A program made the translations under genes and the position numbers. From contig ML992504.1 of assembly GCA_010093995.1 (NCBI GenBank), forward strand, positions 620,001 to 684,000: DNA of 64,000 nucleotides. The letters are read 5' to 3'. This DNA is from Elsinoe ampelina (taxonomy: Eukaryota). Each line of letters starts with the position of its first letter. Within the stretch, counting starts at the first letter, position 1. This document shows positions 4,220 through 5,198 of this stretch, in pieces. The notes under the pieces are model-generated. The model was not told where the DNA came from. It saw only the letters and a program-made list of their open reading frames with translations, and searched no databases.

Positions 4220-5198
4220 ATGAAGTTCACAGAAGCCTTCCTACTCGCCGTCTTATCTTTGGCACCCATAGCTAGTGGGGCGGAGGGCGCAGGTGATGAT
4301 AACGGCCCGGTAAAGAATACAAGAATGATTTTGTAACGGGCTGACTTACATCATTATCAGACTGTTGATGAAACTGCAACAAGATCGCAATGGGTATCGT
4401 CATACAACGCACGACCGAGACTTCCATCTCCCGAAAGTGGCGGTCCTGTAAGTGACATCCTTCACGCCTTGTGAAGAGTGACCACTGAAATCTGTGCATT
4501 CCGTCGATGAGACCGCTACGAGATCACAATGGGTATCCTCATATAATGCAAAGCCCGCCGGCGCCTTCGGCGATGGAAAGATCGTAAGCGTGCAATCTCC
4601 TCGGATGGACCTTCTAACCCGATCAACTTAGACTGTCGACGACACTGCCACCAGATCTCAATGGGTGTCGTCCTACAATGCAAAACCGGTCGGACCTAGT
4701 CCGGGAGCTCCTGGAGTGGTCAGTGCCTCATGTCCAGCCGTCTGACGAGGATGACGCTAATGCTCATTTGAAAAGACCGTGGATGACACTGCCACCAGAT
4801 CCCAATGGGTCTCCTCCTACAACAAGAAAGCATCCAAGCCCCATAAGCATCTACCGGCTTCGATGGCTTCGTCTCACGGACTGCAAGCCTTGGATGGAGA
4901 TGCGGCTTCCATCTACATACCGAGCTCATCGGTAATAGTCGTTCCACTCTGGTATGGGACATCTTCTCTGACTTACCACAGGCTAGCATTCTTCCGGGTG
5001 TCAATCATTGGGTGAGTGTTGTGTGCGTTGAGACTTAAGGGAATTGCTGACATCAACGAGGTGCCTCGTGGTCCGAGTTTCTTGGACCTGAGGAACATCG
5101 ATGTCGACCATGTTGATTGGGTTTCTGTTCGACCTCCATTCGCGTCGATCAGCAAGCCAAACATGTGGGCAAAGGTCCGTAGCCTTGTCTCCGTCTGA
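4220..5198 (+). CDS. Putative RiPP (dikaritin-like) precursor: signal peptide plus 4 repeats [T/S]VD[E/D]TATRSQWVSSYN
   Basis: Exon 1 at 4220-4309 (MKFTEAFLLAVLSLAPIASGAEGAGDDNGP). Repeat exons begin at 4361, 4500, 4632 and 4776, separated by phase-0 introns 4310-4360, 4448-~4499, 4584-4631 and 4719-4775. Flanked by DUF3328 genes. The 3' end is uncertain (5015, 5038 or 5198, depending on possible introns 4932-4981 and 5012-5060). Confidence 0.85.
4361..4823 (+). repeat. Four dispersed 48-nt coding repeats (precursor units)
   Basis: Units at 4361-4408, 4500-4547, 4632-4679 and 4776-4823. Differences are mostly synonymous. Confidence 0.95.

Follow-up and report, generated by a model that had tools for sequence, protein, structure and literature searches.

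The stretch analysed here, 64,000 nucleotides of the Elsinoe ampelina genome (contig ML992504.1 of assembly GCA_010093995.1, positions 620,001 to 684,000 of the forward strand; hereafter "the window"), carries near its left end a seven-exon gene with four repeat units. In our assessment this gene is probably the multi-core precursor of a ribosomally made, UstYa-modified, dikaritin-like peptide, and belongs to a family that has not yet been described. According to reviews, dikaritins start out within a secreted protein of repetitive sequence, which Kex2 and further peptidases cleave, and their cores are cyclised via aromatic side chains by DUF3328 proteins of the UstYa/UstYb type (PMC9233826). 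The Elsinoe gene is read as a precursor of this kind because, the dibasic sites apart, all elements of the dikaritin scheme are present. Behind this reading stand these observations: the gene itself, the evidence that it is spliced and transcribed, the selection on its peptide, its family and its neighbourhood at two loci.

Repeat units and structure of the precursor gene

The peptide TATRSQWVSSYN is present four times on the plus strand (4373-4408, 4512-4547, 4644-4679 and 4788-4823), one copy per exon, and each copy directly follows [T/S]VD[E/D] in exons that begin at 4361, 4500, 4632 and 4776. The four identical 12-residue stretches sit inside conserved units of 16 residues, which confirms the tandem, near-perfect repeats and the exon starts proposed in an initial annotation made from the DNA letters; the spacers between the units are as variable as described there. 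At the DNA level, 9 of the 12 invariant codons vary between copies (the Ser after Arg is written TCG, TCA, TCT or TCC), and any two copies differ at 4-8 of 36 bases, always in the third codon position and never altering the residue. The four repeats require a minimum of 14 substitutions; with 24% of single-base changes here being synonymous, the probability of this outcome without selection is 0.24^14, or about 2e-9. The protein-level selection suspected from the codon variation is thereby borne out, with every one of the substitutions synonymous. Recent duplication or gene conversion was considered as the cause of the repeat identity and rejected, since third positions differ at 4-8 of the 12 codons and, among the four introns that flank repeats, 5 of the 6 possible pairs show no greater likeness than shuffled sequences do. 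Introns 2 and 4 are alike, their score being reached by 0 of 200 shuffles. The dissimilar introns and the synonymous codon drift therefore indicate that the copies are old and have been kept by selection on the peptide.

All six introns are seen as joints in spliced contigs from four public runs belonging to three studies, and when the exons are spliced by coordinate the frame is open throughout, with every intron in phase 0. Introns 4310-4360, 4448-4499 and 4584-4631 are supported by contigs of runs X1, X2 and X6, intron 4719-4775 by contigs of all four runs, and introns 4932-4981 and 5012-5060 by contigs of X1, X3 and X6. The RNA status of all eight run holders is a guess, none being recorded as RNA; we treat the four runs as spliced RNA on the strength of their joints, of which 14 out of 15 listed have GT..AG or CT..AC at their ends. 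Being contigs, they give no usable depth, strand or transcript ends, and contig depth played no part in ranking genes. Intron 2, before repeat 2, lacks an AG acceptor. Because contigs from three of the four runs join exactly at its end despite the odd boundaries, the repeat 2 exon does begin with SVDE; an assembly base error at 4499 may be the source of the unusual ends. The contigs contradict an alternative acceptor, the AG of GATGAG (4510-4511), whose use would leave repeat 2 without its SVDE.

Public databases already list the precursor, under the name of a hypothetical E. ampelina protein (P0001) that equals our spliced product apart from its start. The database model begins 31 codons upstream, at ATG 4127, and full-length relatives begin at the position equivalent to 4220. 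We regard 4220 as the likelier start codon because the homologues start there, and a TATA-like stretch (4122-4129) that overlaps the upstream ATG and an X6 contig that begins at 4143 agree with it. From 4220 the protein opens with a hydrophobic N-terminus that by inspection resembles a signal peptide, as it does in the full-length relatives. With six introns in contigs and this signal-like start, the earlier picture of a spliced, expressed, secreted-type repeat protein holds. As to the extent of the gene, the start proposed at 4220 stands, but the end proposed at 4823 does not, as two further introns and then a conserved C-terminal tail follow, to 5198. The structure model has a mean predicted local distance difference test score (pLDDT) of 53 and is mostly disordered, with only a short helix on each repeat; as modelled, the precursor is not a folded protein.

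Relatives, neighbouring genes and a second locus

We found about 20 relatives in total, in Sordariomycetes and Dothideomycetes. An exhaustive profile-free protein search gave 21 matches, comprising 16 relatives, the query itself and four that were dropped; a word-indexed search contributed three further relatives, another search one, and Podospora one. Those with names belong, in the Sordariomycetes, to Nemania abortiva and N. serpens, Annulohypoxylon nitens and A. moriforme, Xylaria arbuscula, Anthostomella pinea and Bombardia bombarda and, in the Dothideomycetes, to Pseudovirgaria hyperparasitica. Rejected as relatives were P0022, an FHA-domain protein by Pfam, and three long surface proteins of bacterial type, namely P0009, in which Pfam identifies a NEAT domain, and P0018 and P0019, both judged by eye. 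Five repeats of a similar motif, D-R-S-A-W-I-x-x-Y/H-N/R, occur in P0022, which may be convergence or chance. No family cut-off in Pfam is reached by any of the ten family members scanned (P0011 has one sub-cut-off match), the NCBIfam scan of P0001 gave only a sub-threshold chance match, and the Atlas search with P0002 had a best score of 0.84, under the usable level. An RNA-seq re-annotation of Podospora anserina lists the homologue among its new coding sequences (no. 3 on chromosome 1) as 'Signal peptide, transmembrane domain' (InterPro), with no function (PMC9801653). In our literature search, whose coverage did not extend to subscription papers, the family was undescribed beyond this function-less entry.

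The family holds 59 units in 21 proteins, two to five per protein, with the consensus P-T-V-D-x-T-S-T-R-[GS]-[QDK]-W-V-[ST]-S-Y. Arg is kept in 58 of the 59 units, Trp in 57, the Val after Trp in 58 and Tyr in all 59, counts that are conditional because the pattern with which the units were picked fixed Asp and restricted other places (Y or H at the Tyr place; W, R, C or S at the Trp place). As in multi-core precursors, most of the variation falls on the two places preceding W and on those following Y. The units are spaced 16 to 37 residues apart, and one relative has 16-residue units with zero spacer.

The opening of the C-terminal tail, HW-[VL]-P-x-GP-x-Y-L-D, is common to all full-length members in the alignment, and the Elsinoe tail has strongly diverged from the Sordariomycete consensus. 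The tail is present in 9 of the 21 database models. Another 10 stop a few residues past HW, usually with V next, which is what would be expected if an intron beginning with GT were read through. The initial annotation held that introns hide the gene: for the Elsinoe precursor, already annotated, this is not so, but for the family it has force, given these 10 models that stop at the HW intron and a Podospora member that was missed until the RNA-seq re-annotation (PMC9801653).

The spliced precursor contains, as had been noticed, no KR and no RR; there is a single KK, after repeat 4. At the invariant Arg, KR is found in five units of two Annulohypoxylon-type proteins and RR in three units of a Xylaria protein, that is, in 8 of the 59 units and 3 of the 21 relatives. 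Because three relatives have KR or RR there, the invariant Arg is the probable cleavage site. The sequences suggest that the N-terminus of the released piece lies at or just before W, with a core starting near S-Q-W, and that the protease, instead of being of another kind altogether, is a kexin-type enzyme acting at a Thr-Arg site that suits it poorly. Thr at P2 is accepted by kexin, but less efficiently. A core of SQWVSSY(N) released by non-standard proteolysis had been proposed; the cut after Arg and the start near S-Q-W gain support from the three relatives, and kexin-type cleavage at the weak Thr-Arg site seems likelier than a different protease.

Three PF11807 (DUF3328) genes lie within 4 kb of the precursor (Table 1), all above the cut-off of 25 bits when Pfam was run on six-frame open reading frames (ORFs) of the window. 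UstYa1 has a membrane-anchor-like helix and two copies of HxxHC, the motif named as the presumed UstYa active site (PMC12048977). UstYa2 is transcribed divergently, its start about 205 bp from the precursor ATG. DUF3328 genes average about six per fungal strain (9399 in 1461 strains; PMC7329392); chance co-location is therefore unlikely, with three beside the precursor and two at a second locus. The adjacency to DUF3328 genes that the initial annotation had marked out for checking is thus found at both loci.

The second locus comes from one metagenome scan, in which 26 pattern matches included one confirmed relative, on a 7.4-kb contig (L001). One UstYa gene of L001, on the plus strand, matches UstYa1 at 55-62% identity, and another, on the minus strand, has its best window match in UstYa2 (36.5% over 115 residues). 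The L001 precursor homologue carries two units, and its convergent APH-like kinase matches the window kinase by BLASTP at 36% over 230 residues and 30% over 152 residues. No counterpart of UstYa3 or of the BBE oxidase is present on this short contig. As judged by sequence, the set of UstYa1, UstYa2, precursor and kinase is conserved between the two loci. A protein search with the last exon of UstYa1 for neighbours of the named homologues gave nothing among four candidates.

In L001 both units lie in the first exon, and the sole intron falls right after HW, at the same place and in the same phase as window intron 5012-5060. The HW intron is therefore old and shared, whereas the one-repeat-per-exon layout, which the initial annotation described correctly for the Elsinoe gene, is not a family trait; since the L001 units share one exon, it is specific to the Elsinoe lineage. 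Just before the tail, at about 5225-5262 on the plus strand, L001 has a stretch that resembles a degenerate repeat unit (V-D-D ... R-x-W-V). Because of this resemblance, the tail may derive from a last repeat.

The spliced model of the window kinase contains HxDxxxxN and DFD, the catalytic motifs of APH kinases, and no signal peptide. Pfam APH (PF01636) gives 19.1-19.6 bits on the window kinase exons, below the cut-off of 23.2, and 34.6 bits (E 2.2e-8) on the L001 orthologue; from these sequences the convergent neighbour appears to belong to the APH phosphotransferase family. A PDB sequence search with the L001 kinase gave no match up to E = 1. The L001 kinase ORF (5764-6999, minus strand) has a 20-residue insertion exactly at the place of window kinase intron 5827-5872, which is probably an in-frame intron.

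Table 1. Features of the precursor gene and its neighbours, in window coordinates.
Feature	Position	Strand	Remarks
BBE-like FAD-linked oxidase	253-1882	+	Pfam FAD_binding_4 E 2e-19, BBE E 5.2e-5; signal-peptide-like start
UstYa1 (DUF3328)	2143-3162	+	PF11807 E 6.8e-10, 39.6 bits; four introns in contigs; start 2143 or 2233
UstYa2 (DUF3328)	3191-4015	-	PF11807 E 2.2e-13, 51 bits; two HxxHC; introns inferred
Precursor coding sequence	4220-5198	+	seven exons: signal-peptide-like start, four repeat exons, C-terminal tail
Precursor exons	4220-4309, 4361-4447, 4500-4583, 4632-4718, 4776-4931, 4982-5011, 5061-5198	+	coordinate splicing
Repeat unit 1 (TVDETATRSQWVSSYN)	4361-4408	+	
Intron 2, non-canonical ends	4448-4499	+	GT..AT, or TG..CA if shifted by one base; joint 4446->4499 in X1, X2, X6
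Repeat unit 2 (SVDETATRSQWVSSYN)	4500-4547	+	exon start set by contig joints X1, X2, X6
Repeat unit 3 (TVDDTATRSQWVSSYN)	4632-4679	+	
Repeat unit 4 (TVDDTATRSQWVSSYN)	4776-4823	+	
Conserved C-terminal tail	4982-5198	+	HW, intron, then VP-x-GP-x-[FY]-L-D; low confidence in structure model
APH-like kinase	5369-6753	-	427 residues, convergent with precursor; introns 5827-5872, 6603-6657 in contigs
UstYa3 (DUF3328)	6931-7702	-	PF11807 E 1.7e-11, 44.8 bits; two HxxHC; inferred intron 7147-7201; divergent copy
Expressed gene, no recognisable family	~7947-9585	+	two introns in contigs; 406-residue exon 8020-9237; adjoins UstYa3

A proposed pathway and competing explanations

The pathway we propose extends to secretion, modification chemistry, cleavage site, product and the roles of kinase, oxidase and tail. 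The precursor would enter the secretory pathway through its N-terminal signal sequence. Within each unit, the constant half VD-x-T-[SA]-T-R would serve as the recognition element and x-x-W-V-[ST]-S-Y as the core, and membrane-anchored UstYa1 and UstYa2 would oxidise and cyclise the core, with UstYa3 as an extra copy in Elsinoe. The ring would most likely form between the invariant Tyr and the invariant Val or Trp, and the secreted BBE-like FAD oxidase may add further oxidation in a tailoring role. A Golgi kexin-type protease would cut after the invariant Arg at the weak Thr-Arg site, the C-terminal side being trimmed back to the ring, so that each precursor would yield four peptide copies of about 5-8 residues. 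The conserved tail may act as a follower or recognition segment, perhaps docking the enzymes. For the kinase, apparently cytosolic, self-protection or action on a re-imported product seems as likely as a biosynthetic step.

A wider version of this proposal, to which we lend only tentative credence, is that the family represents a distinct class of fungal peptides made by the ribosome and modified after translation (RiPPs) in Dothideomycetes and Sordariomycetes. Its W-V-x-x-Y cores would be cyclised via Trp, Val or Tyr by a dedicated UstYa pair and released at a single Arg, under the guidance of a per-unit leader VD-x-T-S-T-R and a follower tail. Its APH-type kinase would either phosphorylate the peptide or shield the producer. 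KR-based mining would not see such a class, whose products could act in the grapevine host or on rival microbes. Runs that bear a second organism label also contain spliced contigs identical to the precursor gene; because of this, and because the host is a crop pathogen, a role in infection is worth considering.

Several points weigh against reading the gene as a dikaritin-like precursor. Every characterised dikaritin precursor is described as using dibasic sites (PMC9233826), and the Elsinoe precursor is without them. The co-occurrence of precursor, UstYa genes and kinase was examined at two loci only (n = 2), and the unit counts carry the condition given with them above. No product, mass or cross-link has been seen. 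Pfam found no peptidase, transporter or tyrosinase in the window; on its left side the cluster is truncated where the window begins, and it may extend outside. Since the kinase has no signal peptide, it would miss a substrate in the secretory pathway. Spliced transcripts of UstYa2 or UstYa3 are absent among the contigs. A plus-strand intron at 3669-3932 (GT..AG; X1 and X6 contigs) removes the region with the first exon of UstYa2, and one X1 contig runs from UstYa1 through this joint to the precursor. This suggests either a long plus-strand transcript antisense to UstYa2, which would count among these adverse points, or a 5'-extended transcript of the precursor.

Some of the same observations would suit a secreted repeat protein of an ordinary kind, for instance an effector, an adhesin or a wall protein, that functions in intact form, with the repeats as helical binding motifs and the UstYa genes serving another substrate. 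Each RSQWVSSYN carries a short helix in the structure model, dibasic cleavage sites are missing, no peptidase was found in the window, and the repeats of the unrelated P0022, with their R-S-x-W-I-x-x-Y-like motif, may leave room for the unit as a binding helix. We nevertheless consider an intact protein unlikely. The set of precursor, two UstYa genes and kinase recurs on L001, the precursor is the sole repeat-bearing gene between the UstYa genes, the spacers vary freely (16-37 residues per unit) while the unit is fixed, as is typical of multi-core precursors, and the structure model has no folded domain.

It is also improbable, in our judgement, that the units are freed by cleavage at basic residues as linear, unmodified secreted peptides of the pheromone type or of the type derived from repeat proteins processed by Kex2 (KEPs), without UstYa chemistry. 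The signal-peptide-like start and the tandem units with an invariant Arg, extended to KR or RR in some relatives, would be expected of such a gene, and most KEPs (78%) lack a DUF3328 neighbour, their peptides being regarded as linear (PMC7329392). The precursor, however, has UstYa neighbours at two loci, and its W, V and Y at fixed spacing, with Tyr in every unit, fit the Tyr enrichment of KEPs that do have DUF3328 neighbours (65.6% versus 38.2%; PMC7329392). Very improbable, too, is a function residing in the C-terminal tail, as product or as domain, with the repeats serving as a disposable pro-region: the tail is conserved across fungal classes and the stretch before it in L001 resembles a degenerate unit, but the repeats are more constrained (identical here and near-invariant over 59 units), and the Elsinoe tail is strongly diverged from the Sordariomycete consensus, with a pLDDT of about 40-50. 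The multi-core, UstYa-modified precursor remains our preferred reading.

Relation to known systems and remaining features of the window

As a dikaritin-like system, the Elsinoe cluster, with a precursor of secreted type, resembles in outline those of the type dikaritins, ustiloxin and phomopsin, in which a secreted protein with tandem Tyr-containing cores is likewise encoded beside several UstYa genes and Tyr is the residue known to be cross-linked, whereas their precursors are processed by Kex2 at dibasic sites (PMC9233826), of which the Elsinoe precursor has none. The Elsinoe core also differs in having Tyr at its C-terminal end and an invariant Trp, and neither tyrosinase nor methyltransferase was found in the window by Pfam. 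To our knowledge, the ustiloxin and phomopsin pathways include no kinase, no BBE-like oxidase and no conserved precursor tail, all three of which are present in the Elsinoe cluster. Asperipin-2a resembles it in its small cluster and in UstYa-type rings made from internal Tyr side chains (PMC9233826), but has one UstYa homologue as against two to three here, another core, and dibasic sites. Victorin and the epichloecyclins share multi-core precursors from plant-associated ascomycetes and DUF3328-type cyclisation (PMC9233826), and from victorin it is clear that peptides of this kind can be important in plant disease (PMC9632046, PMC9233826). Both are likely processed by Kex2 (PMC9233826) and have unrelated cores, whereas in the window Pfam found no copper amine oxidase and no cluster-linked kexin gene. 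A further likeness is with plant burpitide precursors, in which repeated cores stand upstream of a conserved C-terminal part and Trp or Tyr side chains are modified (PMC12186524); the Elsinoe tail, however, is about 50-70 residues long with no Pfam family or BURP domain and a low-confidence fold, and the enzymes are encoded separately. A literature search for a fungal Trp-Tyr cross-linked RiPP turned up none, and a search of titles and abstracts combining DUF3328 with phosphotransferase gave nothing relevant, so that a kinase partner was not seen there.

KEPs, including yeast alpha-factor, have a signal peptide followed by repeats, an architecture that the Elsinoe precursor with its signal-like start resembles, and a basic residue at the likely cut site, as it does. 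They are, however, defined and mined by KR/RR-type sites (PMC7329392; PMC12048977), which the Elsinoe precursor does not contain, and the family motif is absent from three supplementary text files of the KEP survey (PMC7329392). What searches for fungal RiPPs ask of a gene near DUF3328 members is a signal peptide together with repeats and Kex2 sites, as in the KEP survey (PMC7329392), a lichen study (PMC12048977) and a study of Venturia effectors (PMC9632046), in keeping with the remark in the initial annotation that mining pipelines often rely on Kex2 dibasic sites. The family offers everything that such mining seeks apart from the Kex2 sites, and half of its database models are broken at an intron, which makes it a concrete blind spot of these pipelines. 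A usable search key would combine the unit VD-x-T-S-T-R-x-x-W-V-x-S-Y and the HW-[VL]-P tail. The Elsinoe system thus appears to work like a dikaritin system that lacks the Kex2 sites by which such systems are recognised, and to bring in a core of a new kind, along with a tail and a partner kinase. Should the product be confirmed, UstYa chemistry would gain a new Trp-containing, Tyr-ending core, a monobasic processing rule and a kinase partner.

Beyond UstYa3, the expressed gene with the 406-residue exon (8020-9237) is without a secretion signal, and Pfam, NCBIfam and the protein Atlas gave no match for it. In the roughly 12 kb from 9.5 to 22.3 kb, Pfam gave zero matches on 106 ORFs of at least 60 residues, in DNA with an ordinary G+C content of 0.48-0.55 per kb, and from 22 kb onward Pfam identifies housekeeping genes. 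At 10409-10843, on the plus strand, lies a copy of the C-terminal exon of the kinase, with 64% identity over 145 residues and the other kinase exons unmatched nearby, which may be a gene fragment or pseudogene.

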